DNA from: Candidatus Heimdallarchaeota archaeon
GTDB taxonomy: Archaea > Asgardarchaeota > Heimdallarchaeia > Hodarchaeales > Hodarchaeaceae
Reading direction: 5' to 3'
Length of the DNA: 62,967 bases
Assembly: GCA_011364965.1 (NCBI GenBank)
Contig: RDOB01000009.1
Location: 1-62,967, forward strand
Both the position numbers and the translations under genes were made by a program. Of the stretch, positions 15,483 through 46,090 are shown piece by piece. Every line of letters starts with the position of its first letter. Positions within the stretch are counted from its first letter, which is position 1. The notes beneath the pieces are model-generated. The model was not told the DNA's origin. It searched no databases and saw only the letters and a list, made by a program, of their open reading frames with translations.

Positions 15483-15932
15483 TTATAAAGGCTTCATCCC
15501 CCAAATTTTATAAGTTTCGAAGATATAGAAACCTATTGCGGAACCAAGAAATACCAGAAACAAGAGGTCAACAGTCTGGAAAGATCTTCTTTCAAAGAAG
15601 AATGCTATCCAGAATAAAGAAAACCCACAAATTAGAAAAGATAAGTAAAATAGCATCCTTGGAATCATACGTCTTCCAATTTTGACATAAAGCCCGAGGA
15701 CTCCAGTTTGAACCTCATCTCTGATTCTATACTTACCTGTTCTCACCTCTTGAAAAACTAACCCCGCATTCATCAGCTTAGTCAAATGGTATGAGACAGA
15801 AGAAGGAGAATTTATGTTCAAATCTCGTTGGACTTCTCTAACACCAGCTTCACCCCGAGTAAGCAAAAACCAGTATATTTGAAGGGTTTTACCTTTTAGA
15901 AGGGAATCTAAATCAATTTCATCAGAGTTCAT
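15483..15932 (-). CDS. Membrane-anchored winged-helix regulator (paralog 1)
   Basis: LKGKTLQIYWFLL..GVREVQR..SPSSVSYHLTKL wHTH followed by two hydrophobic helices. Confidence 0.85.
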   Translation of the reverse strand: MNSDEIDLDSLLKGKTLQIYWFLLTRGEAGVREVQRDLNINSPSSVSYHLTKLMNAGLVFQEVRTGKYRIRDEVQTGVLGLYVKIGRRMIPRMLFYLSFLICGFSLFWIAFFFERRSFQTVDLLFLVFLGSAIGFYIFETYKIWGMKPL

Positions 15933-16057
15933 TAAAAAAACCTGTAGTTGTAGTAAATAAAATGGACTTGGACATAGGTGTTATTAATGAGGATATATAG
16001 CTAAAAAGTCTTTAGATGAAGGTAGAAAAAAATGAATAGAATGATTATGTTCTCTTT

Positions 16058-16747
16058 CTATTCTGGAAAAATTTCATGGATCCATGTTTCAAATGCTTGT
16101 ATCGCTGCTAACATATACTGCGTATCTGTGATTTCCAAAAATACTTCTCCAATAGATTCACGGGTGAAATCTAAGAGCTGAATTCCATACCGATAATGAG
16201 GGGAGAACTCCCATGTGCCATTATGAATGCTTAAAACTTGATGGGTTTTGGAAAATATCAAAGATAGGGAAGTTCCATCCTCATATGCAATATCAATCAT
16301 AAAGTTGGGAGGCCAGATTTCCATCAAATCAGAAACAGAACTATAGCCAGCAACATTAGTTACAGCACTTCGAAAAGATGCCATAACTGAATTTAATGAG
16401 CTTTGACTAACCTCTGTGCTTTCTGCTAAAGGTTCGTGAATCAATGCCATTATAAGAGAGTCATTAAGGGATTTCCCAATGGATAATCCATCAATGTACA
16501 TCTCATAATATTCACTTAAATTCCCATTAACAAAGCTGTTATTATAGCACCAAACATGGGAAATGTTTTCCTCAGCTTCAGCCATTCGGGCTGCAATTCG
16601 TTCTCCAATCAGATTTTCTTGTGGAGGCACGTTAGGATTTGAAGGCAATTCGAGATTGTAAATTATTAAAAATACACTAAAGGCCATCACTCCACCTAAA
16701 AGTAAACCAATTGCACCGATTCTCTTAATATTTCCATTTAATGACAT
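16058..16747 (-). CDS. Exported, N-terminally anchored protein of unknown function
   Basis: KRIGAIGLLLGGVMAFSVFLII N-terminal TM/signal followed by an acidic domain with NxS/T sequons. Confidence 0.75.
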   Translation of the reverse strand: MSLNGNIKRIGAIGLLLGGVMAFSVFLIIYNLELPSNPNVPPQENLIGERIAARMAEAEENISHVWCYNNSFVNGNLSEYYEMYIDGLSIGKSLNDSLIMALIHEPLAESTEVSQSSLNSVMASFRSAVTNVAGYSSVSDLMEIWPPNFMIDIAYEDGTSLSLIFSKTHQVLSIHNGTWEFSPHYRYGIQLLDFTRESIGEVFLEITDTQYMLAAIQAFETWIHEIFPE

Positions 16748-16816
16748 AATTTATCACTTTAATGATCATTTGGTCTGATAAATAGTGAAAATCACCCTTT
16801 ATTAAATATATACATT

Positions 16817-16843
16817 AGAACAACCTGTTCGAATTTTTGTACA
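16817..16843 (-). promoter_or_regulatory. Tripartite operator TGTACA-N6-CGAACA-N3-TGTTCT (minus-strand reading)
   Basis: Same hexamer spacing as the sites at 35029-35055, 35113-35139 and 43154-43192. Confidence 0.65.
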
Positions 16844-16929
16844 CTTTAATTTACCATTTATTATGATTATTTTAGTGTTTTTTCTGTCTACCTCGAAACT
16901 AATCTATAAAAGTTGAAAATTTTTTAGGT

Positions 16930-18288
16930 TTGCTAAGGCTTCCAAAACTGGTTCTAGTGAGAAGATTTCATTTGATCATTAATCCAATAATAAATTTTTT
17001 AGGAATAAGACAATCACTTCCTCAGAGTGCTCAAAGTTTGGTACAGAAATTTCTAATTCTTACATCATGTCAATCAATGATCTTTTTTGTGTCAGGCACA
17101 TTTTATGTCCTTTTTATTATTGATAAAGTAGGTTATGCAGAGTTGGGAATACTCGCAGGGTTCTCATTCCTCGTTCAAGCCATACTAGATTACCCTAGTG
17201 GATCATTAGGCGATTGGATAGGACAAAGATGGATATTAGCTATATCTTTTTTCACGTATGGGCTGAGTTATCTACTATTAGTCATTGCTAAGAATTTTTC
17301 AGATCTATTAATTGTATACCTTTTAGCTGCCTTTGCTGCATCTCAAGAATCAGGAGCATTACAAAGCTGGTTTGATAAAAATTACAAATTTGCAGCGAAG
17401 GAGGTAGATATAGATCGAAGAATTTATCAGCTATTTCAAGGGAAAATAACTATGCTTCTTGGCCTTTTATGGGCAGCAGCAATTCTAGTTGGAGGGATAC
17501 TCGCCACATATTTCTTCAGAGAAACTGTGTTTGCAGTTCAATCTATTGGAATGTTTTTTCTCTCATTTGCAAGCTTTATTTTCGTGAAAGACCTCCCAGG
17601 ATACAAAAAACCTGCTGCATCACTTAAACAATACTTCCATATCTTCATTAAAGGGTTGGAATTTACCTTCACCAAAAACTACATCTTTTTCTTTGTTGTA
17701 GCGATTTGCATTTCTAGCGCTTTATGGGCTGTATGGGGAAACATGATTTTATTTCCTTTGTACTTTGGGTACACAGGGAATGACCTTGGTGCAGGAATAT
17801 TCAGATTTTTGGCATGGGTTGGAGCTGCAATTACTGCATCAAAGGCTGCTCAAGTAGCTACACGATTAAATGAAAGAAAATGGATTCCTAGATTAGAATT
17901 ACTTATGATGCTGGGATACTTTGGTTTCTTTGGCCTTCTTATAACAATATTCCCGTTAAATAATGAATTCAATATATCTGGAATAATCCTTACAATCGTT
18001 GCAATGTTCATTTTAGATATGGGGATAAATGCAGCTGATAATCTTAGGAAAAAGCTCTTTTTAGATTTAATTCCTGATGAGATTCGAAATTCGATCTACA
18101 GTCTGATACCAACTCTTGCTCTTATAGTAAGTGCTCCCGTTGTCTCTATTGCAGGAGGTATAGTAGAAACAGGAGGTTTTCCTCAGACTCTTGCAGCGCT
18201 TGCAGGAATATCCACAATCTCTGCATTTTTCTTCTTCATATCGACAAAAAAGATGCCTCTAGTCGAATTAAAATCAAACGATAGTTAA
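16930..18288 (+). CDS. MFS transporter
   Basis: PSGSLGDWIGQR motif A; about 12 hydrophobic segments. Confidence 0.9.
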   Translation: MLRLPKLVLVRRFHLIINPIINFLGIRQSLPQSAQSLVQKFLILTSCQSMIFFVSGTFYVLFIIDKVGYAELGILAGFSFLVQAILDYPSGSLGDWIGQRWILAISFFTYGLSYLLLVIAKNFSDLLIVYLLAAFAASQESGALQSWFDKNYKFAAKEVDIDRRIYQLFQGKITMLLGLLWAAAILVGGILATYFFRETVFAVQSIGMFFLSFASFIFVKDLPGYKKPAASLKQYFHIFIKGLEFTFTKNYIFFFVVAICISSALWAVWGNMILFPLYFGYTGNDLGAGIFRFLAWVGAAITASKAAQVATRLNERKWIPRLELLMMLGYFGFFGLLITIFPLNNEFNISGIILTIVAMFILDMGINAADNLRKKLFLDLIPDEIRNSIYSLIPTLALIVSAPVVSIAGGIVETGGFPQTLAALAGISTISAFFFFISTKKMPLVELKSNDS

Positions 18289-18486
18289 TTTCCACAGATG
18301 AATTATTATCCTTTAGGAGGAGTATAAACAATTTATCTGACTAAAATGAAAAGATTCTGGTAATATCAATTCAGTTAATGGTTTGATTTAGCTAAAATGC
18401 AAAATATGACTACTTTCTTACTTTAAGAGTGCATTAAAATTCTTTTAATTTCTGGTTGCCGCAAAATTTACGTATTTAAGTCAAAA

Positions 18487-18516
18487 TGTAATTCTTTTAC
18501 ATGTAAATCTTTTACA
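18487..18516. promoter_or_regulatory. Tandem palindromes TGTAA-N5-TTACA x2 upstream of the ABC operon
   Basis: TGTAATTCTTTTACA directly followed by TGTAAATCTTTTACA. Confidence 0.55.
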
Positions 18517-18576
18517 GTCCAATTGAAAATAGTTTTGGATTTTTAAATATTCATGTTCAAAGAGGTAATTTAATCC

Positions 18577-19614
18577 ATGTCAGTCGATCAAATTATCCAA
18601 GTTCGTGATTTAACTAAAATATATAAGTCTAAGAAACGCACGGGTCTTTTTCGGAGTAAAAAAAATGAAGTGCATGCTCTTAAGGGAATCTCATTCAATG
18701 TGGATGAAGGAGAAATCTTTGGATTATTAGGACCAAATGGAGCAGGTAAAACTACCCTCATAAAAATCCTTACGACTTTATTATTACCAAGTTCAGGAAC
18801 AGCAAGGGTTAATGGTTTCTCCCTAGAGGACGAAAATGGCATTAAAGCATCCATTGGAGCAATGCTGATGGGTGAGCGGGGTCTTTATTGGAAATTAACA
18901 GGAAGAGAGAATCTTGAATATTTTGGAGCTTTATATCACGTTCCTAAATCTATCCGTAAATCTAGAATTCAATCATTAATCGATTTATTAGAGCTAGAAA
19001 AAATAGTTGATCGTACAGTTGAAACATATAGCTCAGGACAAAAAATGAAAATGGTTTTTGCACGAGCACTTATCAATGATGCTCCTATCTTAATGCTAGA
19101 TGAACCAACGAACACTCTCGATGTTAAAGAAGCACGACGCCTTCGCAATATCGTAAAAAATCAAAATGAATTAGGAAAAACCATAATTTATTGCACTCAC
19201 CAGATGTACGAAGCGGAAGAGCTGTGTCATCGCGTAGGAATAATCGATCAAGGACAAATTATTGCTTTAGATGATCCTCATGATTTAAAGGATTCCTTAG
19301 AAGATAATGATATTTTAAGTGTAGAAGGAAACATTCCTGAAATTGCAAGAATGGCTGTAGAAAGCATACCAGGAGTAATTTCAGCATCCATGCTGACAAA
19401 ACGCGTAAATAATGGATCAAGTGAAGAAAGACCTTATTTAAACATCGTTTGTGATAATAGCAGGACAAAATTACCTCAAATTATCTCTGTTCTAAGTTCC
19501 AATGGAACTATCATTCAAAATATTGATAAGAAAGAGACTACTCTTGAAGATGTTTTCATCAATATTACTGGTCGGTCTCTGATGGATGATACTAGGGTCG
19601 AATCATCAAATTGA
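18577..19614 (+). CDS. ABC-2 type exporter ATP-binding subunit
   Basis: GPNGAGKT, YSSGQ, LMLDEPT motifs. Confidence 0.95.
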   Translation: MSVDQIIQVRDLTKIYKSKKRTGLFRSKKNEVHALKGISFNVDEGEIFGLLGPNGAGKTTLIKILTTLLLPSSGTARVNGFSLEDENGIKASIGAMLMGERGLYWKLTGRENLEYFGALYHVPKSIRKSRIQSLIDLLELEKIVDRTVETYSSGQKMKMVFARALINDAPILMLDEPTNTLDVKEARRLRNIVKNQNELGKTIIYCTHQMYEAEELCHRVGIIDQGQIIALDDPHDLKDSLEDNDILSVEGNIPEIARMAVESIPGVISASMLTKRVNNGSSEERPYLNIVCDNSRTKLPQIISVLSSNGTIIQNIDKKETTLEDVFINITGRSLMDDTRVESSN

Positions 19615-19629
19615 GAAGAGGATAATCAA

Positions 19630-20490
19630 ATGTCTCAGTTGAGTCTTAGCTTACAAGGACATCTTGGAGTCGTTTGGGGAACCTTCATCGTGAGATTAAA
19701 AACAATCTCGCGGTATAAAGGATCCTTATCCATGGATATCTTTATGCCTATTATGTTTGCTGCCATGCCAATCCTTCTGGGGCAAGCAATGGCTGGATCT
19801 ATATCCGAAGCTTCTGCAAATTTTCAAGCAAACACAGGGTTGACTAATGCAAGTTACATAGCTTATATGATCATTGGTGCGAATGTTTTTTCCACAGTAA
19901 CAGCCTCATTTTGGCTATTTGGCTTTTTTATCCGACGTGAACAAATATTGGGGACTTTAGAATCATTATTTATGACTCCAGCTAGTAAAACCTCAATATT
20001 AGCGGGATTAGCATTTTATGTTGAAGCAAGATCTGCTTTCACTTTTGTACTCGGATATCTCCTTGGCTGTATCTTATTTGGAATCAATCCACTTCAAGGA
20101 CAGGTAATTCTTGCATTATTAATTCTCCTTATTGGGTTAATTCCTATACATGGACTTTCTTTTCTGATGGGAGCATTAGTATTAAAGGTCAAACAGGCTA
20201 ATAGCTTGATGAACTCTCTCCAATGGGGATTAGGTATCATAATGGGGGCTTTTATACCAGTTACCGCTCTTCCTTTGTTCATACAGATAGTTTCGTTTAT
20301 TTTTCCTGGATTTTATCTTAATTATGGTATCCAAGCTGCGTTGACTGGTATTGAATGGTTTTTTGGGAATATGTATCTAGATCTCACTGTGATTTTCATT
20401 TTCGTTTTAATCTGTCCATTAGTTGGTTATTGGGTCTTTTCTAAAGCTGAATCTCGTATAAAAGCTGCAGAGGGAGTAGGACAATTTTAG
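19630..20490 (+). CDS. ABC-2 type permease
   Basis: About 6 TM helices; REQILGTLESLF motif. Confidence 0.9.
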   Translation: MSQLSLSLQGHLGVVWGTFIVRLKTISRYKGSLSMDIFMPIMFAAMPILLGQAMAGSISEASANFQANTGLTNASYIAYMIIGANVFSTVTASFWLFGFFIRREQILGTLESLFMTPASKTSILAGLAFYVEARSAFTFVLGYLLGCILFGINPLQGQVILALLILLIGLIPIHGLSFLMGALVLKVKQANSLMNSLQWGLGIIMGAFIPVTALPLFIQIVSFIFPGFYLNYGIQAALTGIEWFFGNMYLDLTVIFIFVLICPLVGYWVFSKAESRIKAAEGVGQF

Positions 20491-20501
20491 GAGGCATAAT
20501 A

Positions 20502-21341
20502 ATGGGATTTGCACCGAGAAAAGTCGTAAGAACTGAAGAATTTCAATTGTGGTGGAAACAATTCTGCTCTATGACAAGAAAGGAATTTATTATTTTAACT
20601 CGTTACAAATTTCAATTTTTTCTAAGCTTTATCCAAGTTTTTCTTATTATGTTCCTTTTTACAGCAGCAGCATTAATTTTAAGCCCAGCTGATAAGACAA
20701 GTTATGGTTTAGGACTTATGTATTATTCTTTTATTCTCTTCATGTTTCTCTCAACCGCATTGTGGGATATTGGAAATTCATTAAGAGAAGAACAATATCA
20801 GGGAACCTTGGAAAGTCTGTTTCTATCACCTATTTCCTATATTTCGACCCTAATTTCTAGAATAATTACAAATCTCATCTGGACTAGCTTAAATGTTATT
20901 GTTACGTTTTTTGTCATGTCTTTTGTGTTTGGTGAATTACCAATAAAGAATGTGACATGGGGAATCTTAATTCTAATCCTTGGAACAATCGTATGCTTTG
21001 GATTCTCGTTTGGATTTGCCGGATTAGCTTTACGTTATAAGGAGTCTATGAACACTTTAACAAATTTCCTACAATTAATTTTCATGATCGTATGTGCCAT
21101 GTTTTTTCCCTTTTCAGCCTTACCAGAAGTAATCCAGTGGATCTCACGTTTGATTCCTCTCTCCTATTGTGTAGATTTATTTCGTACAACGATGATTGGT
21201 GTCACACCAGAACTTCTACCCTTTGAAATTGAAGTAATTATTGTTGCGGTATCTGCAGTATTATTTCCGGTTATAGGGGTATATTATTTTCGTCGAACTG
21301 TCCAACAAGCTAAAAAAGATGGAAATTTGTCTGAATATTAG
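20502..21341 (+). CDS. ABC-2 type permease
   Basis: About 6 TM helices; EEQYQGTLESLF motif. Confidence 0.9.
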   Translation: MGFAPRKVVRTEEFQLWWKQFCSMTRKEFIILTRYKFQFFLSFIQVFLIMFLFTAAALILSPADKTSYGLGLMYYSFILFMFLSTALWDIGNSLREEQYQGTLESLFLSPISYISTLISRIITNLIWTSLNVIVTFFVMSFVFGELPIKNVTWGILILILGTIVCFGFSFGFAGLALRYKESMNTLTNFLQLIFMIVCAMFFPFSALPEVIQWISRLIPLSYCVDLFRTTMIGVTPELLPFEIEVIIVAVSAVLFPVIGVYYFRRTVQQAKKDGNLSEY

Positions 21342-26936: not shown

Positions 26937-28457
26937 TCAAGTTTTATGGTTATACCCCTCTCGGAATTTCGGGGAATTTGATATTTTATCAATAGCATTT
27001 CCTACAAACATGATCGAAGTTGTAAGTAATGCCAAACACAGACCAGGAGGAATAATAGCCCACCAAGCTCCAATAACTATTCCTCCTTCAAAATAGGTTT
27101 GAGCACACATAAAACCCCAAGAAAGAATAACGTTTGTATTTCTTTTTTCATACACATTTTCAGCGTTAAAAATTCGAAAACCCAGAAAAGCCAGACCAGC
27201 TTCTAACAAAACCGCATACACAGCAGTAGTAGTTATCTGAACTATTGCTAATCCCAAAAGGCTTGGTAATATGTGATTAAACATAATATATCTATCATTT
27301 CCGCCAGCAGCCTTAGCAGCCTCAACATAAAGCTTCTCACGTTCAACAATTACCTTAGATCTAATTATTCTGGCTGTTAATGGCCATGAGAAAAATGCAA
27401 TAAGGAATGGTATTAAAATGGAGGGAATTCTATATTGTGTGATAAATACAAACAATATTATAAGAGTAGGAAAGATTAAAATGAAATCAACAATACGCAT
27501 GATAATATCATCAATTATTCCTCCTTTATATCCAGCAATTAATCCAGCTATAAAGCCAATTCCAGCAGAAATTATACCTCCAAAAAATGCTGTATAGAGA
27601 GATAGTTGAGCACTCCAGAAAATTTGAGCAAAAATATCTTGTCCATAGTGATTTGTTCCCAACATTCCAAAGGCTGGTCGCGTTATTTGGAGTTCAAGCT
27701 GATCAAACCATACATTTATTGTTCCAGTTAACGTAGGATTATACTCACGAAATTCTACCCCTATTTCCAAGTCAAAAATCATCCCTCGCTGAAAAAGAGA
27801 GTATAATAGAATTAGATTGATATCCCTATCATACAAAGTCCATTCTGCTTCTTTTTGCGGTCTTAAATCTATTTTTGTAAGGAAAGGATTGAGACTAATA
27901 TTAGGAGAATTAAATCGGATATATGGAAAAATGGACCGAAATGTTAGATTTCCAATGATAGAATATTTCATAACACATACGATTGAAGCATTCAGGGGGG
28001 GATTGTACTCCCAGTCAATCCTGCTATATCCACTTGAAAAACCATTAATTGTTTCAGAGGGATTATCATCAATAACAGTAAATTTAATGGAACCAGATCC
28101 TGCAAAATATTCTTCTGAATCAAAGGAGTAATTGATATTTGTAGGTTGGGAACTTTGAAATATCCACCCCTGAGCATTTTCAAAGCCAGAATTAGTAATA
28201 TAATTCCCAGAAGGGGGAATATTTTTATCAAAGATTGTGACCCATCTAGGAGGAGCATAATCAGGACCAATATAAGACTCTTCCCCATAGATGGGTGGTA
28301 AAATTCCAAAGTGAGTTAGGATTGGAGCAGTCAAGGCCATTCCAGTCAAAAGAAGTATCCCACCAAACCCAAACACCCCGCGTTTTTCACTAAAAAACAC
28401 TCCAATGTAGTTTTTCCATTTTTTTCTCCTAGATAAGCGATAAGTAATATCCTTCAA
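26937..28457 (-). CDS. DppC/OppC-type ABC permease with a large extracellular insertion
   Basis: LGTNHYGQD, YVEAAKAAG EAA loop, HILP, WWAIIPPG motifs. Confidence 0.88.
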   Translation of the reverse strand: MKDITYRLSRRKKWKNYIGVFFSEKRGVFGFGGILLLTGMALTAPILTHFGILPPIYGEESYIGPDYAPPRWVTIFDKNIPPSGNYITNSGFENAQGWIFQSSQPTNINYSFDSEEYFAGSGSIKFTVIDDNPSETINGFSSGYSRIDWEYNPPLNASIVCVMKYSIIGNLTFRSIFPYIRFNSPNISLNPFLTKIDLRPQKEAEWTLYDRDINLILLYSLFQRGMIFDLEIGVEFREYNPTLTGTINVWFDQLELQITRPAFGMLGTNHYGQDIFAQIFWSAQLSLYTAFFGGIISAGIGFIAGLIAGYKGGIIDDIIMRIVDFILIFPTLIILFVFITQYRIPSILIPFLIAFFSWPLTARIIRSKVIVEREKLYVEAAKAAGGNDRYIMFNHILPSLLGLAIVQITTTAVYAVLLEAGLAFLGFRIFNAENVYEKRNTNVILSWGFMCAQTYFEGGIVIGAWWAIIPPGLCLALLTTSIMFVGNAIDKISNSPKFREGYNHKT

Positions 28458-35112: not shown

Positions 35113-35177
35113 TGTACAGACCCTTGTACACAGTGTACAAAGATTAATACATGTCTAATTGTAGAAAAGCTTAAGTA
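35113..35177 (+). promoter_or_regulatory. Operator TGTACA-N6-TGTACA-N3-TGTACA, then N24, then BRE/TATA GAAAAGCTTAAGTA
   Basis: Three perfect TGTACA hexamers at 35113, 35125 and 35134. Confidence 0.78.
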
Positions 35178-35370: not shown

Positions 35371-36930
35371 TTGGAAAGAAAAAAAATGATCAATTCAAAG
35401 AATATAGTTAAGCAAAGAATTTGTGTTTATTTTTCCCTTGTGATACTTATTTTCCTAATATATCAAGGAGTTCAAGGGGAAGAACGGAACGCTGGATTTT
35501 TTATAAACTATTCTACTCAAGCGACATCAGATTGGGTAAAAATGAACCCAGCGATAGCTCCTCCTGCACGGTATTATCTTGGAGGGCAGATGGCTTATGA
35601 TTCGGAATCAGATCGAGTAATCATTTTCAGTGGCGCTGTACAATCAGGAGTAGGATGGTTTATAAGTATTAATGATACTTGGGCGTATGATTACAACTCC
35701 AATATCTGGGAGAATATGACGAATGAGCAAATGCGCGATAATGGTCGAATATATGGTGGGATGGCTTATGATTCGGAATCAGATCGAATCATTCTGTTTG
35801 GGGGGGCAGATAGTCGGTATATGGCGAATTCCACTAGAGTAGGTGAAACATGGAGTTATGATTATAATACAAACACTTGGACAAATTTAACCACAGCTAA
35901 TGGCCCTCCTGCCCGAGGGTGCCATTCCATGACCTATGATGAAGCTAATGACCGTATGATAATTTATGGTGGGATGCATCCAGGGATCTATTATGAGAAT
36001 CTTCACTTTTACCAGGACACCTGGGCTTATGATTATAATTCAAACACCTGGACGAATATGTCGCCCCCAGTGAATCCTGGACCGTTAATCCAACAGGGAT
36101 ACGCATATGACTCTGAATCCGAAAGAACTGTCATCTTCGGCGGGAGAAATCAATCACATAGCGATGATGGCGTAAATTATCCTGCTTTCTCAAGCAGCAA
36201 CACCTGGGTTTATAGCTACTCCCACAACAATTGGACGAAAATGTCTCCTGCTAATTCTCCCTCGAGAAGAGCGATTGTTGGGATGGCTTATATGACTCAT
36301 CTTGACAAAGCTTGTTTCTTTGGGGGAATTATTCCATGGAACGATTTTTCTGATACATGGACTTATGATTATAATACTGATACTTGGACTGATATGAATT
36401 CTCCTTCCCCCCCATCCGCTCGTTATTTTCATTCTTTCGCGTATGATTCCGAATCCGAGGTAATTATTCTATTTGGTGGGATGCAGTATGGAGGAGGATA
36501 TGTGGATGATACATGGGCGTATACTTATCAGGCAAATCCACCCAGTACTCCTTTAGATTTCCAAGGACATTTTGTCAACGATGAAGTCAAGCTAAACTGG
36601 ACTTCTCCGAAGACCGATGCAGGCTCACCCATCACGGGGTATTTGATTTATCGAGGAAGTACAGACAATGATCTAACTCTGTACAAAACAATACAAGGAA
36701 AAGACACTTTAGAGTATAATGATACAGATATCAGTAAAGGAAGTACTTATTATTATACTATCCGGGCAAAAAATACTGTTGGTGAGAGTAAAAGTTCAAA
36801 AATGGTTTCAATAACCATTTCTTCGTCTCCAAGTGTTACTGGATTTCCCCTTATCTTGATAAGTGCAACTATTATCTGTTTAGCGATTCGACGAAAAATG
36901 ACAAGAAAAAAGAACAAAAAGTGGATTTAG
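35371..36930 (+). CDS. Secreted kelch-repeat beta-propeller + FN3 protein with C-terminal anchor
   Basis: Six AYDSES..IILFGG..DTW.YDY..NTW repeats; FN3 (W..P..GSPITGY..YYYTIRAKN.VGES); TGF-TM-RRK tail. Confidence 0.9.
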   Translation: MERKKMINSKNIVKQRICVYFSLVILIFLIYQGVQGEERNAGFFINYSTQATSDWVKMNPAIAPPARYYLGGQMAYDSESDRVIIFSGAVQSGVGWFISINDTWAYDYNSNIWENMTNEQMRDNGRIYGGMAYDSESDRIILFGGADSRYMANSTRVGETWSYDYNTNTWTNLTTANGPPARGCHSMTYDEANDRMIIYGGMHPGIYYENLHFYQDTWAYDYNSNTWTNMSPPVNPGPLIQQGYAYDSESERTVIFGGRNQSHSDDGVNYPAFSSSNTWVYSYSHNNWTKMSPANSPSRRAIVGMAYMTHLDKACFFGGIIPWNDFSDTWTYDYNTDTWTDMNSPSPPSARYFHSFAYDSESEVIILFGGMQYGGGYVDDTWAYTYQANPPSTPLDFQGHFVNDEVKLNWTSPKTDAGSPITGYLIYRGSTDNDLTLYKTIQGKDTLEYNDTDISKGSTYYYTIRAKNTVGESKSSKMVSITISSSPSVTGFPLILISATIICLAIRRKMTRKKNKKWI

Positions 36931-36949
36931 TTTAGAGAGAGAAAAGAAA

Positions 36950-38479
36950 ATGAGTGTATATTCAAAAAAACTAAAGTTAGCATGGATTATTATTTTGGGT
37001 TACTCTTGTTTTGCACTTTTAGTCTGTAACAACATAGTTATTGCTAATCATTTAGATATTCCTTTAATGCAAAGAAGTATCTCCCAAAGTAGTTCAGATT
37101 GGGTGGAAATGTCTCCCGTAATTGCGCCACCAGCACGGTATCATCATGCATTTCAAACTGCTTATGACTCACAATCAGACAGAATTATTCTCTTTAGTGG
37201 AGATAATGGAGATTATTCTAGAATGTTTAATGATACATGGGCATATGATTATAATACAAATACTTGGGAAAACCTTACTACCCCTGAAATGAAGAACGTA
37301 GCCAAACTCGCTGCAGCAATGGCTTATGATTCGGAATCTGATCGTATAATCATGTTTGGCGGGTGGAAATGGGCACATGGACATTCAGTATATCAAGATA
37401 CTGGTGTGGGAGAAACTTGGAGTTATGATTATGAAACTAACATCTGGATGAACCTCACCACTGAGAATAGCCCGCCATTTCGAGGATGTTGTTCCCTGAC
37501 TTATGATGAGGCGAATGATAGGATGATTATGTTTGGTGGCTTTGATTCGAATATGAACTTGAATACTGATTTGCCATTTTATCACGATACTTGGGCTTAT
37601 GATTATAACACTAATACTTGGACCAATATGAGTCCTACTGTAAATCCTCCATCCTTGGGGAACCCTGGGTGCGCCTATGATATAGAATCCAATAAAACAA
37701 TTCTTTTTGGTGGAGTTTCCTGTAGGAACACCTACAGGTGTGTTGATCGTGATGAAACTTGGGTTTATGATTATAAAGAAAACACATGGACCAATATGAA
37801 CCCAGTAGTTCACCCCACTAACCGAGTTCTTGGAATGATGACGTATAATTCAAAAATAGATCGTGTTTTATTCTTTGGTGGTTTGTTTTATAACGGTGGT
37901 ATTTATCTTGGAGATACTTGGAACTATGATTATAATAGTAACATTTGGACAAATATGAATTCCCCTAATCCACCGTCACGACGTATGATTCATTCATTTG
38001 ATTACGATTCAGAATCAGATGTTGCAATTCTCTTTGGTGGGAAAACTATTGATTCTATCGGCGCAAGCGTATTAATTTCTGATACATGGGCATATAGGTA
38101 CCAAGCTAATGCTCCTACTCCTCCCACTAATCTACAGGCTGAGGAAGTCAATGGTGAGGTGAATTTAACATGGACTGTACCTTTAACTCATGCAGGATCC
38201 CCTATTACAGAATATGTAATATATCGTGGAAGTGAAGCTGATTCACGCACTCTCTATAAAACAGTTTTAGGTGCAGAAACATTTAATTTCCATGATACAG
38301 AAGTAAATAAAGGAGGGACCTATTTCTATACTGTGAGAGCAAAAAACGCAGTTGGTGAAAGTGAGGATTCCGATATTGTAGAAATTAAGATTCCAAGTAC
38401 AGCTCCTGGCTTCTCGATCCTAATTGTATCAAGTACATTTCTAGTTTGGGCAATTTACAAGAAAAAATTTGTAAAATAG
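36950..38479 (+). CDS. Secreted kelch-repeat beta-propeller + FN3 protein (tandem paralog)
   Basis: Same architecture; APGF-TM-KKK tail. Confidence 0.9.
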   Translation: MSVYSKKLKLAWIIILGYSCFALLVCNNIVIANHLDIPLMQRSISQSSSDWVEMSPVIAPPARYHHAFQTAYDSQSDRIILFSGDNGDYSRMFNDTWAYDYNTNTWENLTTPEMKNVAKLAAAMAYDSESDRIIMFGGWKWAHGHSVYQDTGVGETWSYDYETNIWMNLTTENSPPFRGCCSLTYDEANDRMIMFGGFDSNMNLNTDLPFYHDTWAYDYNTNTWTNMSPTVNPPSLGNPGCAYDIESNKTILFGGVSCRNTYRCVDRDETWVYDYKENTWTNMNPVVHPTNRVLGMMTYNSKIDRVLFFGGLFYNGGIYLGDTWNYDYNSNIWTNMNSPNPPSRRMIHSFDYDSESDVAILFGGKTIDSIGASVLISDTWAYRYQANAPTPPTNLQAEEVNGEVNLTWTVPLTHAGSPITEYVIYRGSEADSRTLYKTVLGAETFNFHDTEVNKGGTYFYTVRAKNAVGESEDSDIVEIKIPSTAPGFSILIVSSTFLVWAIYKKKFVK

Positions 38480-41247: not shown

Positions 41248-42945
41248 TTATTTTCTTCGAGAAAGCATTACTACTCCAACAAACAACACGAAGAATGAAA
41301 AACCAGGACTTGGAAATGATGAAGTTGTGGTTGAACTGGTTGTGGAAAGATCTACTGTTATGGATACCACATTAGATAATCGACTAGAACCAAACGAATT
41401 TTCCGCAGTTATAGCATAATAGTATGTTCCACTTGTGTTAACAGTATCAGTATATTCATTGGCAACTACTGCTTCAATTGATGACAATCCTGAAGTGGAT
41501 GAAAACGATGATGATTCCCTGTATATTTTATAACTCGTTGCAGCATTAGAAGCGGTCCATTGAAGTTCTAATTCCTTTGGATTATTATTATTTTGTATAA
41601 TCGGACTGAGGGAAGGAGTTGTCGGTTCTCCTGATAGAAATTTATAAAATATATCGGGATCCTCACCCGCTCCAACGATATCCATAAAATCCAGCCAAAT
41701 TAAATGGAGAAAACCTAATTTGTCGCAAAAAATTTCAGGGTCATCACTGTTTTCGGAGCTTTCTGCAGTAAGTAAGGTCATGGAGTCCCAAGTTCCTGAA
41801 GTTGAATTCTTATACTTATAATAGATATCAGAATCTGAACCAGAGGATCCATAGTTTGTTTGGTCTCTCCATACAATATGGAAATTATCCGACGGATCAA
41901 TGACTAAACATGGAAAACCACAATCTTCTGTGCTGTTTACAGAAATTACTTCGGTTGGGGTCCACGTAGAAGTGTGAGGATTAAGAGTTTTATAGAATAC
42001 ATCAAACTGATTTAAAATCTCCTCTTCGGCATATGGAAGTTCAGTTCGGTCAATCCAGACAATATGCGGGTTTCCACCAGAATCCAAACTAATTCTACTT
42101 CTGTACGCCTCTTCTGTACTTTCAGTAGAAATATAAACAGTGGCCAACCATGAGTTAAGGGTTTCATCATATTTCTTATAAAAAATCGACCCCGTCCCTG
42201 CTTCAGCGCCATTATATCCCGAAAAATCTGTCCAAGTTAAATGAATATTATTAGAATCATCAATTGCTACATCTGGCCAAATAGAATCATAATCTTCATC
42301 TTCCACTGAGATTTCTTCAATTGTTTGCCATTGATCATTAATATATGCCCTGTGATAAATTTCTTGGGGAGCATTTTGTTCTGTCCAAAAAACATGTCGT
42401 TCTCCAGAATCTGTAACAGCAATTACTGGATCGAATGAATTATTGGATCCTATTGATATCGGCATAGGTTGTGTCCACTCTTCAGTTGATGCATTCCACA
42501 TTCGGTACACAATATCTTTATCATTTGTATCTTTAAAAAAAACTGTAGAATCTTCCCAAACAACGTGTAGGTTTCCGCTTGAATCCATAGTACAATGTGG
42601 ATTACTAGCAGCTCCCGTACTTGTGTTTGAAACAAGCACTGGCGCATAATATTCTTCACTAAAAAGGTTCCAGCGTTGGTAGATTACATCTTGGTATACA
42701 TCATCATCACCAGCACTGGTATATGGAGCTTGTTCGCCCCAAATGACGTGGATATTGAAATCGTCATCTACAACAATATTAGGGTCCATTGAAGTCATAT
42801 TACTTTGATCAGAAACCACTTTCAGAGTTGACCAGGTCCAAGTTACGGGATTTTGCATAGAAGAATAGACAGGGGGTCTATGAATTCCTATAAAGATCAA
42901 GATTAAGAATAAACACAACATTATATAGTTCTTATTTCTCTTCAT
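41248..42945 (-). CDS. Secreted beta-propeller (D..GN.H.VW repeats) + FN3-like protein with PGF anchor
   Basis: Signal peptide; repeated P.I..D....HIVW.D...DIYY; S/T linker; SPGF-TM-RRK tail. Confidence 0.85.
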   Translation of the reverse strand: MKRNKNYIMLCLFLILIFIGIHRPPVYSSMQNPVTWTWSTLKVVSDQSNMTSMDPNIVVDDDFNIHVIWGEQAPYTSAGDDDVYQDVIYQRWNLFSEEYYAPVLVSNTSTGAASNPHCTMDSSGNLHVVWEDSTVFFKDTNDKDIVYRMWNASTEEWTQPMPISIGSNNSFDPVIAVTDSGERHVFWTEQNAPQEIYHRAYINDQWQTIEEISVEDEDYDSIWPDVAIDDSNNIHLTWTDFSGYNGAEAGTGSIFYKKYDETLNSWLATVYISTESTEEAYRSRISLDSGGNPHIVWIDRTELPYAEEEILNQFDVFYKTLNPHTSTWTPTEVISVNSTEDCGFPCLVIDPSDNFHIVWRDQTNYGSSGSDSDIYYKYKNSTSGTWDSMTLLTAESSENSDDPEIFCDKLGFLHLIWLDFMDIVGAGEDPDIFYKFLSGEPTTPSLSPIIQNNNNPKELELQWTASNAATSYKIYRESSSFSSTSGLSSIEAVVANEYTDTVNTSGTYYYAITAENSFGSSRLSNVVSITVDLSTTSSTTTSSFPSPGFSFFVLFVGVVMLSRRK

Positions 42946-43153
42946 TCTATTTCCACATCAAAAGCTTTTGACTAATGACATTTAATACCAAGGTTAATAT
43001 TATTTTTGATATTCCAAGATCAAAATTATGAAATTTTCCAAGCAACCTGCTTTAATTGTCTGCAAATCTTAATTATAGTGAAATAATCTTCGCAGAGGTG
43101 AGTAATAAGGCAGTAAAGGAATTAGCATCCCTATGTATTTTTAATTTTTTTGC

Positions 43154-43239
43154 TGTTCTACAATTAAAACACCGCGTTTAACTCTTTAAACACCCATTGG
43201 AGGGAGGAAATCGGTTTCACAGTTAGATAGGTTTATATA
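43154..43239 (+). promoter_or_regulatory. Degenerate operator TGTTCT-N6-AAAACA-N3-CGTTTA-N6-TAAACA with TATA TTTATATA at 43232-43239
   Basis: Same N6/N3 spacing and the same 40-nt core-to-TATA offset as the two 35 kb promoters. Confidence 0.55.
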
Positions 43240-43337
43240 TGAATACCTTCCATATATTTAAACAAGGAAATAATGTTTTTCCACAAATAAAAACCCATCA
43301 TTGGTATTTTCCAATACATGGAGTGTGTTATAAATAA

Positions 43338-45524
43338 ATGAGTCGAAATAATACTTATGCAGTCCTTGGAGGGATTTTTCTAGCGGTTTTAGTGTTCACA
43401 GTTGGTTTAACTGTTTTTCAGCCCCGACTACCTTTTTCAAATACTCCATCACATGAAACCCCGAATACTCTTCCTGGATCTGCTTCTAGTTTCCATATTG
43501 AGCAATCAGTAACTACCTCATTCGGAAATTATGAACCTCTCTCCCTTGATTATACCCCTCAAATCCCCCTTTACACAATCAGGTCAGATTTATCCAATGT
43601 TAACATGCAGGGTCTTTCAATTACATCCCCCACTATTAAAAACCAGCTTGCAACTTATGGATTCTCTTTAGTAGATGAGGGAGTTGAAGACATTTATGAG
43701 CTATATAAATTTCAAGAGTCAAGCCCAAAATTTGTCACCTCTGATTTGTGTCTTCATGCTTACCATGTTCTTTACGATATTAGCTTGCGTATACTCGAAG
43801 GGACGAGATTTACCTCAGATTTTGAATTATTACTAGATCTTTTACGAGAGGACCAACAAAACAAACGTAATTTAGCAATATCATCAGTGGTTCAGGACGC
43901 GTTTGATCGAAATATTGCTTTTCTATCCGTTATGCTTTATCTACTGGATAATTCAACATATCCTATTCCTAGTTCCGTCTCCTCTTTGGTAAACACAGAA
44001 ATCACTAATATTCAAGGATTCAATCGTGCGCCATCTGCAATTTTTGGATATGAGGAGGATTATTCTCAATATAAGGTACGGGGTCACTATACTAGGAATG
44101 ATGTTCTCAAACAATATTTCCAAGCTATGATGTATGCTGGACGTATGGGATTCCTCCTTCAGAGTCCAACTGGAGAAATTGAAATGGGGATTGACCATAC
44201 TAGGATGAGTATGCTATTAATCAGTTCTTTCAACGCAACCAGTGGATCATATTCAGCTTGGGACCACTGGGATCAAGTATATGAACCTACAGTATTCTAT
44301 GTTGGAGCGAGTGATGATCTAACTCCTAAGGAATATTATCAAGTGTGGCGAGAATATAATTCTCCAGAAGGAGATCAACTCGCTGACGAATCTCTCATCA
44401 TAGAAATCATCTCAACTTTAAAAGCCCTCCGAAGCCCTAAGATTAACTCAATGCTCATTAATGAAATGTTTGATGCTGCGAATGTCACACAAGGATTTCG
44501 TTTAATGGGACAGCGATTTATTCCTGATTCATATATCTTTCAGGAATTAGTTCATACTGCAGTAGGGGGACGGTTATTCCCCAACGGTTTAGATATCTTT
44601 TCTGTGTTTGGTAGCCCTCGTGCAGCTATTCATCTTCAATCTGAGAATGAAACTTACCCTGATTATAACGACCAGATTCTGAAGTTACGAGTAGAATTTG
44701 GAAATCTTAGTGTATATGATTGGACTCAGAATTTATACTGGCTTTGGTTGTACAGTCTTTTCCCACTTTTAAGTCCTGCGACTGAAGGATATCCTATGTT
44801 CATGCTGAGTGATGCTTGGACGGACAAATCGTTGATGACCACCATGGGTTCGTGGGCCGAACTCCGTCATGATACCATCCTTTATGCGAAACAGTCCTAT
44901 ACTTATGAAACGTCCATGCCTGAGATAGCTAAAGGATATGTTGAACCTTATCCGGAAGTTTATGCTCGATTAAGTAGTCTCGTTGGCTTGATGAAAGACG
45001 GTCTTAGTAATAGGGGATTATTAGCAGAAGCTTTCCAGTACAAATTAACTGCCATTCAACAGCTTTTCGATCGATTAGTCGAAATTAGCATCAAGGAGCT
45101 AGAAAATATTCCTCTAAACGAGACGGATTATTACTTTATTAGCTATGTCGGGCAAGAAATCGGGGGAATTGCTAGTTATAATGATCCTGATGCAAATGAA
45201 TGGACATCTGAAGCTGATGATCGAATGGCAATTATTGCTGATGTTCATACTGATCCAAATACTGCTCAAGTCCTCGAGGTCGGAACAGGTAATCCTTTTA
45301 CCATTTATACGATTGTACCTAGCTCTAATGGAGGTCTATACTTAACCCGTGGTGGAACTTTTTCTTATTACGAATTTAAACATCCCATGACCAATAGATT
45401 ATCTGATGAAGAATGGCATATTATGTTGGATACCTCACCGCCCCCTCTCCCAGATTGGATTTTAGAAAATGTACCAATTGCGTCTAATATCAATACATTG
45501 ATATTCACAACGAAGGAGGAATAA
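43338..45524 (+). CDS. DUF3160-family exported protein
   Basis: N-terminal TM; DYSQYKVRGHYT, FRLMGQRF, SWAELRHDTILYAKQ, GYVEP, IADVHT motifs. Confidence 0.85.
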   Translation: MSRNNTYAVLGGIFLAVLVFTVGLTVFQPRLPFSNTPSHETPNTLPGSASSFHIEQSVTTSFGNYEPLSLDYTPQIPLYTIRSDLSNVNMQGLSITSPTIKNQLATYGFSLVDEGVEDIYELYKFQESSPKFVTSDLCLHAYHVLYDISLRILEGTRFTSDFELLLDLLREDQQNKRNLAISSVVQDAFDRNIAFLSVMLYLLDNSTYPIPSSVSSLVNTEITNIQGFNRAPSAIFGYEEDYSQYKVRGHYTRNDVLKQYFQAMMYAGRMGFLLQSPTGEIEMGIDHTRMSMLLISSFNATSGSYSAWDHWDQVYEPTVFYVGASDDLTPKEYYQVWREYNSPEGDQLADESLIIEIISTLKALRSPKINSMLINEMFDAANVTQGFRLMGQRFIPDSYIFQELVHTAVGGRLFPNGLDIFSVFGSPRAAIHLQSENETYPDYNDQILKLRVEFGNLSVYDWTQNLYWLWLYSLFPLLSPATEGYPMFMLSDAWTDKSLMTTMGSWAELRHDTILYAKQSYTYETSMPEIAKGYVEPYPEVYARLSSLVGLMKDGLSNRGLLAEAFQYKLTAIQQLFDRLVEISIKELENIPLNETDYYFISYVGQEIGGIASYNDPDANEWTSEADDRMAIIADVHTDPNTAQVLEVGTGNPFTIYTIVPSSNGGLYLTRGGTFSYYEFKHPMTNRLSDEEWHIMLDTSPPPLPDWILENVPIASNINTLIFTTKEE

Positions 45525-45649
45525 AATTCCTCATTCCTCCCATCCTTTTTTTCTTTGTTTTCCTAGTTTTTCGACTTCCTATTCCATAATCTAATAATAT
45601 AGAATTATTACTTTTTTCATGAAATTTAAAATTTCAGGAATATTCTCTA

Positions 45650-46090
45650 ATGACAAAAATTTCAGAGGATCTTTTGCAAGGGAAAACCCTAAAGGTTTAT
45701 TGGTTCTTATTAGAACATGCAAATTCTGGTGTAAGGGAGATTGATCGCCAACTTGGATTTAACTCCCCTTCGACTGTACTCTACCACATTAACAAACTAG
45801 TTGAGGTCGGACTTGTCGAAAAAACGACTCAAGATAAATATACAGCCAAAGAATATGTGAGTTCAGGTATACTTGGTTTATATTTGAAAATAGGACCTAA
45901 AATGATTCCAAGAATTGTATTTTACCTTTCTTTCTTTATCGCTTTTCTAGTCCTTTACTTTTTCTTGCTAATTTCCCGTAATCCTTTTGTTTTCTACTTT
46001 GAAGATTTTTTTACAATTTTAATTAGCTTAAGTGGTATTTTTTTCTTCACTATAGAATTTTACCGTATCTGGACACTGAAACCACTCTGA
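45650..46090 (+). CDS. Membrane-anchored winged-helix regulator (paralog 3)
   Basis: LQGKTLKVYWFLL..GVREIDR..SPSTVLYHINKL..SGILGLYLKIG.KMIPR, two TM helices, IWTLKPL end. Confidence 0.85.
   Translation: MTKISEDLLQGKTLKVYWFLLEHANSGVREIDRQLGFNSPSTVLYHINKLVEVGLVEKTTQDKYTAKEYVSSGILGLYLKIGPKMIPRIVFYLSFFIAFLVLYFFLLISRNPFVFYFEDFFTILISLSGIFFFTIEFYRIWTLKPL

Follow-up and report, generated by a model that had tools for sequence, protein, structure and literature searches.

Membrane-tethered winged-helix regulators paired with exported proteins in Asgard archaea: a candidate transmembrane signalling module

Asgard archaea are the closest known relatives of eukaryotes and are hard to grow or manipulate; to our knowledge, how they sense their environment is poorly understood. 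In a 62,967-nucleotide stretch of a Candidatus Heimdallarchaeota genome (here called the window), a gene for an exported protein is followed three times by a gene for a small membrane-anchored winged helix-turn-helix (wHTH) regulator. We asked whether these pairs constitute signalling units and, if so, how an outer protein could act on a regulator with next to nothing outside the cell.

Three regulator paralogs and their partners

The original prediction placed in the window three regulator paralogs, each co-oriented with the gene upstream and bearing the same short motifs, and the open reading frames (ORFs), strands, gaps and 40 invariant alignment columns agree with it. The genes and the anchor of partner 2 are as follows.

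15483 to 15932, minus strand: regulator 1 (149 aa), with a wHTH, a beta-hairpin, a two-TM hairpin and a His-type recognition helix
16058 to 16747, minus strand: partner 1 (229 aa), with an N-terminal signal-anchor (motif LNGNIKRIG...GG) and an ectodomain of no known family
32195 to 32728, minus strand: regulator 2 (177 aa), built like regulator 1 with an N-terminal extension of about 30 aa added, and a Gln-type recognition helix
32773 to 34914, minus strand: partner 2 (713 aa), with a signal peptide, an SBP_bac_5 domain (E value of 5e-50), one further domain and, at its C terminus, a dedicated anchor
32776 to 32913, minus strand: C-terminal anchor cassette of partner 2, with a pre-TM F..P motif, a TM helix, an invariant Asn and a charged tail
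43338 to 45524, plus strand: partner 3 (728 aa), with an N-terminal anchor and DUF3160 (E value of 2e-179)
45650 to 46090, plus strand: regulator 3 (146 aa), built like regulators 1 and 2, with a His-type recognition helix

A genome-wide search found three regulator copies in the 2.97-Mb source genome, all of them in the window. Their pairwise identity was 40 to 46%, the motifs GK(T/A)L..YWFL, G.LG.Y..IG..MIPR and IW.(M/L)(K/R)P fell in invariant columns of the alignment, and the recognition helix was the most conserved stretch. Pfam returned wHTH matches of the ArsR, TrmB, HTH_20 and LexA type (TrmB, HTH_5, HTH_20 and LexA_DNA_bind) with scores at or slightly below threshold; regulator 1 scored 24.6 bits against the HTH_5 cut-off of 22, which qualifies it as an ArsR-type wHTH. 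Against the NCBIfam ArsR/SmtB model NF033788, the regulators reached 16.5 to 29.7 bits, far under its cut-off of 55, and Trans_reg_C, the OmpR/CadC-type wHTH of Pfam, gave no match in them.

The C-terminal part consists of two hydrophobic TM helices joined by a loop of about 10 residues, and the protein stops just past the second helix. An AF2 model of regulator 1 (pLDDT of 89) comprised the wHTH, the hairpin and the two TM helices, with a beta-hairpin of only about 25 residues leading from the wHTH to the first TM helix; the topology originally proposed was thus recovered by both hydrophobicity and modeling. The modeled N-terminal domain superposed at about 2 Å, over 64 to 69 aligned columns, on ArsR/SmtB regulators, the structural matches being HlyU, CzrA, CadC and SqrR. 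The regulators are ArsR/TrmB-type winged helices joined to a C-terminal two-helix membrane hairpin.

Pfam and ORF analysis also found the unrelated exported genes that had been described upstream: the 229-aa anchored protein, the SBP_bac_5 protein and the DUF3160 protein, at distances of 125, 44 and 125 nt from regulators 1, 2 and 3, respectively, and in the same orientation. The ectodomain of partner 1 had no Pfam family and no clear fold match; its N-terminal anchor motif is unique among the membrane proteins of the source genome. Partner 2 carries the SBP_bac_5 domain of ABC-importer binding proteins, but its gene is not accompanied by those of a cognate permease and ATPase. No Dpp-type permease or ATPase genes adjoin it, the ABC system near the units (18577 to 21341) is an ABC-2 exporter by Pfam, and a single isolated BPD_transp_1 gene is about 4.3 kb distant, with unrelated genes intervening, as expected from the claim that this DppA-like protein has no transporter beside it. 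Elsewhere in the source genome, the SBP5 genes C14 and C12 adjoin permease pairs and C11 lies about 7 kb from one. The anchor cassette of partner 2 differs from the PGF-type anchors on other surface proteins of this genome, including the C14 and C11 proteins. Partner and regulator are probably co-transcribed; the 125-nt spacers of units 1 and 3 contain T-runs and TATA-like boxes, so the regulator may also be transcribed separately.

A widespread family with dedicated partner anchors

The search beyond the source genome, proposed at the outset as a check, recovered members in Hodarchaeales, further Asgard lineages, Bathyarchaeia and Nitrososphaeria, amounting to 643 clusters at 50% identity (E value of 1e-10 or better). 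The regulators form a genuine, large, unnamed family. Enrichment of exported neighbors had likewise been set beforehand as a check: a co-oriented gene for a predicted exported protein lay within 200 nt upstream of 52 of the 81 evaluable members, compared to 53 of 535 other genes at the same loci (about 10%) and 8.3% genome-wide, with "exported" called by a simple hydrophobicity rule on naive ORF calls. The pairing is far above chance expectation. Partner and regulator genes frequently overlap by 1 or 4 nt, and the frequent 4-nt overlaps suggest matched production of the two proteins.

Across the family, partner ectodomains belong to at least eight unrelated types, in line with the interchangeable partners originally envisaged, and partner type follows regulator clade (12 label changes versus 49.8 in shuffles). 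About one-quarter of the members constitute an "orphan" subgroup that has neither an exported partner nor an operator of the type described below. In Bathyarchaeia, a gene for a homologous small two-TM protein follows the regulator in 25 of 28 cases, which is the identical logic in a different gene order.

The unrelated ectodomains are carried on shared anchors. One C-terminal anchor is common to the SBP_bac_5, SBP_bac_1, NosD/beta-helix and SBBP-propeller partners, while one N-terminal anchor is common to the DUF3160 and small-230 partners, where it was present in 13 of 23 compared to none of 823 non-partner genes. In the source genome, the generic type of surface anchor is PGF; the anchor of the partner is unique there. 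Searching 22 genomes with a profile of the C-terminal anchor alone gave 30 strong matches, all 30 directly upstream of a regulator, and anchor type follows regulator clade. Judged from these sequence comparisons, dedicated anchors that track regulator clades support a physical coupling of partner and regulator.

A predicted palindromic operator and candidate regulons

Unbiased 6-mer enrichment upstream of partner genes yielded related hexamers and, from these, palindromes. The resulting predicted operator, TGTWC-N8-GWACA, is palindromic, spans 18 bp and often has a third half-site added. In at least five unit types, it sits just upstream of the partner gene's TATA-like box; the tripartite form is also present in Loki-type genomes. 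Strict sites occurred in 19 and relaxed sites in 28 of 47 partner-upstream regions, while strict sites were found upstream of none of 19 orphan members and at 15 per 776 kb of coding DNA. The source genome contains 14 sites, 4 of them intergenic, and 3 of these 4 are at units 1 and 2. The sites in the window and the surface-protein genes beside them are listed below.

16818 to 16843, minus strand: predicted operator of unit 1, TGTAC-N8-GAACA-N3-TGTTC, whose strict palindrome (16826 to 16843) is among the only 4 intergenic ones in the genome
35038 to 35055, no strand assigned: predicted operator 2a, an exact palindrome (TGTAC-N8-GTACA) in the intergenic region between the divergent genes, on the side facing partner 2
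35113 to 35139, no strand assigned: predicted operator 2b, TGTAC-N8-GTACA-N3-TGTACA, likewise in that intergenic region, on the side facing the kelch/FN3 genes
35371 to 38479, plus strand: genes for two surface proteins of 519 and 509 aa, both of the kelch-propeller/FN3 kind (Pfam) and anchored by the generic PGF type
43154 to 43171, plus strand: TGTTC-N8-AAACA, a candidate unit 3 operator that has one mismatch and precedes a TTTATATA box by about 60 nt

In unit 1, about 5 nt separate the operator from a TATA-like box downstream of it (16803 to 16812); the site lies in a divergent region common with an MFS gene (16930 to 18288, plus strand), and orthologous units show an identical layout. Site 2a is also carried by the orthologous locus L021, and orthologous DUF3160 units have strict TGTTC-N8-GAACA sites. 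In relatives, homologous propeller genes follow regulators, behind operators; the two kelch/FN3 genes probably belong to the regulon of regulator 2.

Operator variants tracked the recognition helix: His-type helices occurred with T-type sites 38 times and with A-type sites 4 times, and Gln-type helices 5 and 23 times, respectively. This simple His/Gln rule breaks down in Loki-type units. A refined rule, drawn up post hoc, pairs x-His with T-type sites in 19 of 21 units, A-x-Gln with T-type sites in 5 of 6 and T/Y-x-Gln with A-type sites in 8 of 8. Regulator, operator and partner are inherited jointly when a unit duplicates, so the covariation could partly reflect shared descent rather than interaction. 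A conserved palindrome whose variants follow the recognition helix supports the idea that the regulator binds DNA.

Candidate mechanism and comparison with known systems

Architecture, family, synteny, operator and anchor specificity are established computationally. On this basis, we lean, with some confidence, toward each unit being a transmembrane signalling module made of two proteins (a "co-component" unit). The regulator would be a membrane-tethered transcription factor, its ArsR/TrmB-type winged helix on the cytoplasmic side, held by the beta-hairpin and the two-helix membrane hairpin with merely about 10 residues outside. Probably as a dimer, it would bind the 18-bp palindrome that precedes the partner gene's BRE/TATA and control the partner, its own gene and, in unit 2, the adjacent surface propeller genes; the operator position favors activation. 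The variable outer domain of the partner, be it a solute-binding protein, DUF3160, a beta-helix, a propeller or an unknown fold, would do the sensing or binding. As the regulator has two TM helices and no outside domain, any contact with the partner must occur within or beside the membrane. There, the anchor cassette (a C-terminal TM helix with a charged tail, or an N-terminal short peptide with a Gly-rich TM helix) would dock onto the membrane hairpin and cytoplasmic parts of the regulator, and the state or amount of the partner would set regulator activity.

Alternatively, the regulator could be an ordinary local one that takes its input elsewhere, for example from lipids, the state of the membrane or a small molecule within it, with the partner as target rather than co-sensor; such input has reportedly been proposed for BcrR or ArnR. 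Transcription factors commonly adjoin their own targets, operators are present at the units, the regulator has almost no outside surface and the orphan subgroup functions without a partner. Nonetheless, we regard this account as unlikely, since it leaves unexplained a regulator-restricted anchor on unrelated ectodomains, an anchor type that tracks regulator clade and the frequent 4-nt overlaps suggestive of matched production. Less likely still is a production feedback: inserted partner would titrate the regulator through the anchor, and its amount would set unit expression with no outside ligand. Sensing more easily explains why partner ectodomains are typical ligand- or glycan-binding folds (SBP families, beta-helix, propellers) and why further surface-protein genes are apparently under the same operator, even though the feedback would suit the dedicated anchors, the translational coupling of the gene pairs and the apparent autoregulation of a unit whose operator precedes the partner gene, itself ahead of the regulator. 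That the protein serves the anchored partner as a scaffold in the membrane or as an assembly factor, using its wHTH for protein contacts, with the palindromes bound by another regulator, seems very improbable: winged helices have protein-protein roles in some archaeal and eukaryotic proteins and the Pfam scores are close to threshold, but the fold comes closest to ArsR/SmtB regulators, which bind DNA, conservation peaks in the recognition helix and operator variants follow the residues of that helix in several lineages.

The two-protein module admits a bolder extension, about which we are slightly more doubtful than confident: that Asgard and Bathyarchaeial archaea use plug-and-play receptors, in which a portable, short anchor cassette makes any exported ectodomain the sensor of a cognate membrane-tethered factor, the signal being read in the membrane and acting directly on a nearby promoter. 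If this is true, such receptors would give these lineages a main surface-to-gene signalling route and would be the counterpart, in prokaryotes, of receptor-plus-membrane-bound-transcription-factor logic. Altogether, our results point to a widespread, undescribed archaeal wiring of cell-surface proteins straight to gene control. They allow many genes labeled "hypothetical" or "ArsR family" to be given a working annotation, and they offer a possible reason for some solute-binding proteins being without a transporter, together with candidate regulons of cell-surface propeller proteins. The predicted operator, DNA-binding domain and docking cassette are separately testable in vitro or in a heterologous host, and interchangeable outer domains on a common anchor may be of use in sensor engineering.

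Among known systems, soluble ArsR/SmtB and TrmB-type regulators (HlyU, CzrA, Phr) bind palindromes as dimers. The Asgard regulators have the DNA-binding domain fold in common with them; compared to ArsR/SmtB proteins, the C-terminal dimerization helix and metal/ligand sites are replaced by the beta-hairpin and membrane hairpin. BcrR of Enterococcus, a one-component regulator bound to the membrane, likewise has its HTH at the N terminus and its TM helices at the C terminus and lacks a sensor domain outside the cell; its HTH is XRE-type, its TM helices number four, and it senses bacitracin directly with no partner protein.

The original prediction knew of no characterized archaeal equivalent, a statement that does not hold for the class: ArnR and ArnR1 of Sulfolobus acidocaldarius are membrane bound and have the same overall layout, a cytoplasmic N-terminal HTH and two C-terminal TM helices, and they are activators that bind boxes upstream of the promoter of genes for cell-surface structures (PMC6396743). 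Compared by architecture, HAMP-like and sensor domains separate the HTH of ArnR from its TM helices (PMC6396743). The Asgard regulators total 146 to 177 aa, and their cytoplasmic part is the wHTH alone. ArnR has no known dedicated exported partner, unlike the Asgard regulators. More broadly, transmembrane transcription regulators (TTRs) are common in archaea, at about four per archaeal genome (PMC10269533), and the Asgard proteins belong to this class, whose definition asks for a predicted DNA-binding domain together with one or more predicted TM segments in a single protein. The words "adjacent," "cofactor," "ArsR," "TrmB" and "Asgard" are absent from the text of that survey, so the family, its partners, anchors and operator are untreated there (PMC10269533).

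The closest functional parallel lies in the co-component systems ToxR/ToxS, TcpP/TcpH, VtrA/VtrC and PsaE/PsaF, which combine a membrane-tethered wHTH factor with a separate membrane-anchored outside protein (PMC9214523). Like these, the Asgard units have adjacent, often overlapping genes, pairs that co-diversify and a fast-evolving partner (PMC9214523). The proposed ToxRS-like character thus stands as regards an adjacent, co-diversifying anchored partner and falls as regards descent. Unlike ToxR and CadC, with an OmpR/CadC-type wHTH, a single TM helix and a periplasmic domain that pairs with that of the partner, the Asgard regulators have an ArsR/TrmB-type wHTH and a two-TM hairpin whose loop is about 10 residues long; homology to ToxR was rejected, and the likeness is one of working only. 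A two-helix hairpin with no outside domain rules out periplasmic domain-to-domain contact. Moreover, the hosts are archaeal, the partner gene lies upstream rather than downstream of the regulator, and in place of lipocalin-like partners the Asgard units display many unrelated large ectodomains on a common anchor cassette.

The regulators, their fold, and their family

All three regulator ORFs of the original prediction, which encode small membrane-anchored winged helix-turn-helix (wHTH) proteins, were found in the window with 40 to 46% identity in alignment, and the motifs described for them fall within invariant columns of the three-paralog alignment. The co-oriented gene claimed to lie upstream of each (hereafter, the partner) was likewise confirmed.

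Regulator-partner units in the window
15483-15932 (-), unit 1 regulator
16058-16747 (-), unit 1 upstream gene, 229-aa N-anchored protein of no family; gap, 125 nt
32195-32728 (-), unit 2 regulator
32773-34914 (-), unit 2 upstream gene, 713-aa SBP_bac_5 protein with signal peptide and C-terminal transmembrane (TM) helix; gap, 44 nt
45650-46090 (+), unit 3 regulator
43338-45524 (+), unit 3 upstream gene, 728-aa DUF3160 protein with N-terminal anchor; gap, 125 nt

The first 60 to 70 residues of the regulators matched ArsR, TrmB, HTH_20, and LexA-type winged helices in Pfam, with scores at or just below threshold, and two hydrophobic helices follow the wHTH in each protein. For paralog 1, an AF2 model derived from a family alignment of 83 rows was confident (pLDDT 89) and runs from three helices and a wing through a beta-hairpin, which holds the G.LG.Y..IG..MIPR motif, to two long helices with about 5 residues between them. 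Minus-strand rows of this alignment start without the initial Met, so that residue numbering in the model is one lower than in the protein. In superposition, the N-terminal domain fitted the ArsR/SmtB regulators HlyU, CzrA, CadC, and SqrR at about 2 Å over 64 to 69 aligned columns; the best overall structural match was the archaeal regulator Phr. Because basic residues lie before TM1 and after TM2, flanking the hydrophobic hairpin, the wHTH and the C terminus should both be cytoplasmic under the positive-inside rule, with the short loop alone outside.

The source genome, G000 (2.97 Mb, 16 contigs, 35% G+C, 87% complete), has only three regulator copies, every one inside the window, and 20 of the 21 other genomes of the genus hold 1 to 12 copies each. 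A profile search against 1.84 billion representative proteins returned 1186 clusters at E ≤ 0.001 and 643 at E ≤ 1e-10, and most matches also covered the TM hairpin. The family has named members in Hodarchaeota/Heimdall, Promethearchaeota (Loki-type), Hermod- and Thorarchaeota, many Bathyarchaeia, Nitrososphaeria, and Aigarchaeota. Their annotations read hypothetical, HTH-domain, or ArsR-family protein. Scores of the family against NCBIfam models all fell short of the cutoffs, and look-alike clusters in the ESM Atlas, with 90 to 100% archaeal membership, are mostly labeled "hypothetical." Our literature search found no description of the regulator family, its anchors, or its operator.

Exported partners and their dedicated anchors

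Gene calling in 80 loci of relatives, done simply by taking the longest ORF, gave 85 family members. For 81 of these the upstream gene could be evaluated, and 59 of the 81 had one in the same orientation no more than 200 nt away. The expected enrichment next to exported-protein genes was borne out: the upstream gene was predicted to be exported or anchored in 52 of 81 cases, compared to 53 of 535 non-adjacent genes of the same loci, although these counts include kin loci, hence are not independent, and the Fisher P value overstates the difference. Across all genes of G000, 8.3% are predicted to be exported or anchored. The independent fact is that the partners fall into eight unrelated clusters, seven of them exported (SBP_bac_5-like, 26 loci; DUF3160, 13; a 230- to 280-aa family, here small-230, 10; a 550- to 645-aa family, 5; a 272-aa family, 5; SBP_bac_1, 1; and two further singletons). 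Many partner-regulator pairs overlap by 1 or 4 nt, and the three units of the window represent one each of the three largest partner types. Regulator clades follow partner type, with 12 label changes on a maximum-likelihood tree (quick search) versus 49.8 when labels were shuffled. In a relative's genome, G018, contig C282 (L023:3917-17630) carries three units within 14 kb, two of SBP_bac_5 type and one of SBP_bac_1 type; this clustering resembles that of the three units within 30 kb in the window and suggests that whole units were duplicated locally.

One relative has, at L078:1571-2143, a gene for an Arf-family small GTPase (E 1.5e-27) immediately upstream of a family member, where an exported partner would otherwise stand. 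For the 229-aa partner, Foldseek gave nothing significant (top rows were lipocalin and START-like, at meaningless TM-scores of 0.11 to 0.19), and the best VIA-align Z of 6.8 was under the tool's noise level; we assign this protein no fold and claim no resemblance to a ToxS-type lipocalin. The window also holds a solitary BPD_transp_1 permease-family gene (26937-28457, -) whose 506-aa product is much extended at its N terminus; the gene adjoins a fumarate-reductase-type flavoprotein gene and has no ATPase or binding-protein gene alongside.

The dedicated anchors of the partners are the strongest new evidence for a putative physical coupling of partner and regulator. In a shared C-terminal cassette, an aromatic..Pro motif and a TM helix are followed by an Asn that is invariant at the cytoplasmic face and by a tail that is first basic, then acidic. 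This cassette is common to unrelated ectodomains, namely, SBP_bac_5 and SBP_bac_1 within the genus and, in Loki-type genomes, beta-helix, propeller, and SBP_bac_5. The matching regulators form one clade, in which the N terminus has an additional segment, the outer loop an invariant Gly-Asp, and TM2 an invariant Glu-Ser. DUF3160 and small-230 partners carry an N-terminal cassette, (I/L)-N-G-x-(I/L)-(K/R)-K-Y-G followed by a Gly-rich TM, found in 13 of 23 such partners versus 0 of 823 non-partner genes; their regulators cluster in the quick tree, with weak support for the branch (SH-aLRT 80).

Alternatively, the partner anchors could be generic sorting signals. The generic surface anchor of G000 is of the PGF type, in which a PGF-like motif is followed by a TM helix and a run of Arg/Lys. 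It occurs in dozens of predicted surface proteins, among them the window's kelch/FN3 and BNR proteins (35371-36930, 36950-38479, and 41248-42945). Genome-wide, these ends look like an archaeosortase (PGF-CTERM-type) sorting signal, and they are often preceded by a Thr-rich linker. The canonical SBP5 genes of G000 lie beside permease pairs on contigs C14 and C12 and about 7 kb from one on C11, and the proteins of C14 and C11 bear PGF-type anchors. The unit 2 partner anchor is unique within G000. A search of 22 genomes with an anchor-only profile yielded 30 strong matches (E ≤ 2e-11), each directly upstream of a regulator and none elsewhere, with 3 of the 30 coming from outside the training set; three marginal matches (E ~0.008) were not upstream of regulators. 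The generic-signal reading was rejected in view of the differing PGF-type anchor and the strong profile matches at regulators only. Class III (pilin-type) signals are usually cleaved in a Lys/Arg-Gly pattern, with which the N-terminal motif is at odds; this would argue against such a signal.

Candidate operator and regulon

The operator search compared 6-mer enrichment in partner-upstream regions with that in other intergenic DNA, with no motif presupposed. CGAACA/GTTCGA were enriched in DUF3160 units (14 observed versus 0.4 expected), AGAACA/GTTCTA in small-230 units, TGAACA in the 272-aa type, and CTGTAC/GTAC in SBP5 units. These combine into an 18-bp palindrome, TGTWC-N8-GWACA, often with a third half-site 3 to 5 nt further on; TGTACA-N6-TGTACA in the window is the same element. 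This predicted operator sits directly upstream of a TATA-like box, and in Loki-type units the same tripartite site abuts an A-rich BRE/TATA. Archaeal activators usually have their sites upstream of BRE/TATA. ArnR boxes exemplify this position (PMC6396743).

Of 47 partner-upstream regions, 19 held strict palindromes (28 when relaxed), versus 0 of 19 regions of orphans, a subgroup of the family without an exported partner. Other intergenic regions had them in 8 of 398 cases, at least 5 of which lie between a regulator and the next exported-protein gene, and coding DNA had 15 per 776 kb scanned. G000 contains 14 strict sites, 4 of them intergenic, and three of these 4 are in the window (16826, 35038, and 35113); the unit 3 site, at 43154-43171, has one mismatch. 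The only strict intergenic palindrome outside the window, TGTTC-N8-GAACA at C11:465297-465314, lies between two divergently oriented genes, whose products are polytopic membrane proteins of 267 and 1001 aa. A relaxed scan (≤1 mismatch) of G000 gave 58.8 sites per Mb in intergenic versus 102.8 per Mb in coding DNA; since relaxed sites were not enriched in intergenic DNA, operator claims are limited to strict sites and extend to no wider regulon.

Within the genus, a His in the middle of the recognition helix goes with TGTTC half-sites (T-type; 38 cases versus 4 A-type) and a Gln with TGTAC (A-type; 23 cases versus 5 T-type), and TGTTC sites also occur at His-bearing members nested in the Gln clade. 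This simple code, valid within the genus, breaks down in Loki-type units, which all have Gln and show both site types; there, the residue two positions before the Gln separates the types. Over all units, x-His accompanies T-type sites in 19 of 21, A-x-Gln T-type sites in 5 of 6, and T/Y-x-Gln A-type sites in 8 of 8, while S-x-Gln is mixed. Because the refinement was made after the fact and each unit is inherited as a whole, the two-residue correlation that would link operator to regulator counts as support but not as proof.

Among relatives, SBP5-type loci have the operator additionally in front of genes downstream of the regulator. The products of these genes are propeller surface proteins (SBBP or kelch-FN3) or surface proteins with no annotation, and most bear anchors of the PGF type or other generic anchors with basic tails. 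Within the window, operator 2b (35113-35139) faces the kelch/FN3 pair at 35371-38479. Operator 1 (16818-16843) lies between unit 1 and a divergently oriented MFS transporter gene (16930-18288, +), which may be co-regulated with unit 1 because its upstream region holds this operator. Co-transcription is likely for the overlapping pairs and for unit 2, which has no T-run in its 44-nt spacer; in units 1 and 3, both 125-nt spacers contain T-runs and TATA-like boxes, and the regulator may be transcribed separately.

Other lineages and known systems

The orphan group comprises about 21 members, approximately one per genome in the genus, and none of this type was found in G000. Orphans (L065-L087; e.g., L065:5935-6450) are oriented divergently from a gene of 158 aa, which has a weak HTH_11 match, and convergently with one of 175 aa; upstream of them, the TGTWC palindrome is absent and CAACAC and ACACCA are enriched.

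In an independent sample of named genomes, Loki-type and other Asgard members (~187 aa) overlap the preceding exported protein by 4 nt, the partners being NosD/beta-helix, SBBP-propeller, or SBP_bac_5 proteins. Loki-type variants of ~255 to 261 aa (L114, L115, L117, L120, L125, L127, L130, and L134) and of 352 aa (L121 and L136) also occur; variants have two additional N-terminal TM helices (4 TM in total) or 6 to 7 TM, and for most of these an exported partner is not adjacent. In Bathyarchaeia the order is reversed, with a small protein 36 to 80 nt after the regulator in 25 of 28 cases. These small proteins are mutually homologous, with one TM at the N terminus, another at the C terminus, and a variable stretch between them. 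The family (L147-L183, e.g., L147:4513-4911; 92 to 160 aa, N terminus like MNK.L.YT..AILLGTVTM.APLALL) gave no match in Pfam or NCBIfam. A GTTGAAAACAG-like element and a promoter-like box, GGGAGAATTATATTATAT, are common to several of the Bathyarchaeial upstream regions, and no TGTWC palindrome was found in the Bathyarchaeial units. At L145, L158, and L172, a Cys-rich soluble protein of ~150 aa (CGMDC.VCSGY...CKGCRP motif) follows the regulator instead. Given the Asgard 4-nt-overlap pairs and the reversed Bathyarchaeial pairs, the tie of regulators to partners that are exported or in the membrane is an old and general one, with gene order and partner varying.

Altogether, comparative genomics makes a well-supported case for the predicted regulator-partner system. 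In their working, the units would resemble the bacterial co-component systems ToxR/ToxS and VtrA/VtrC (PMC9214523). The original description as a ToxRS-like envelope-sensing module holds for this likeness but not for the defining features, namely, the wHTH type and the pairing of periplasmic domains (PMC9214523). The regulators satisfy the broad definition of the TTR class (PMC10269533). They share their overall layout with archaeal ArnR but differ from it in being without its sensor domains and in having a dedicated partner (PMC6396743).
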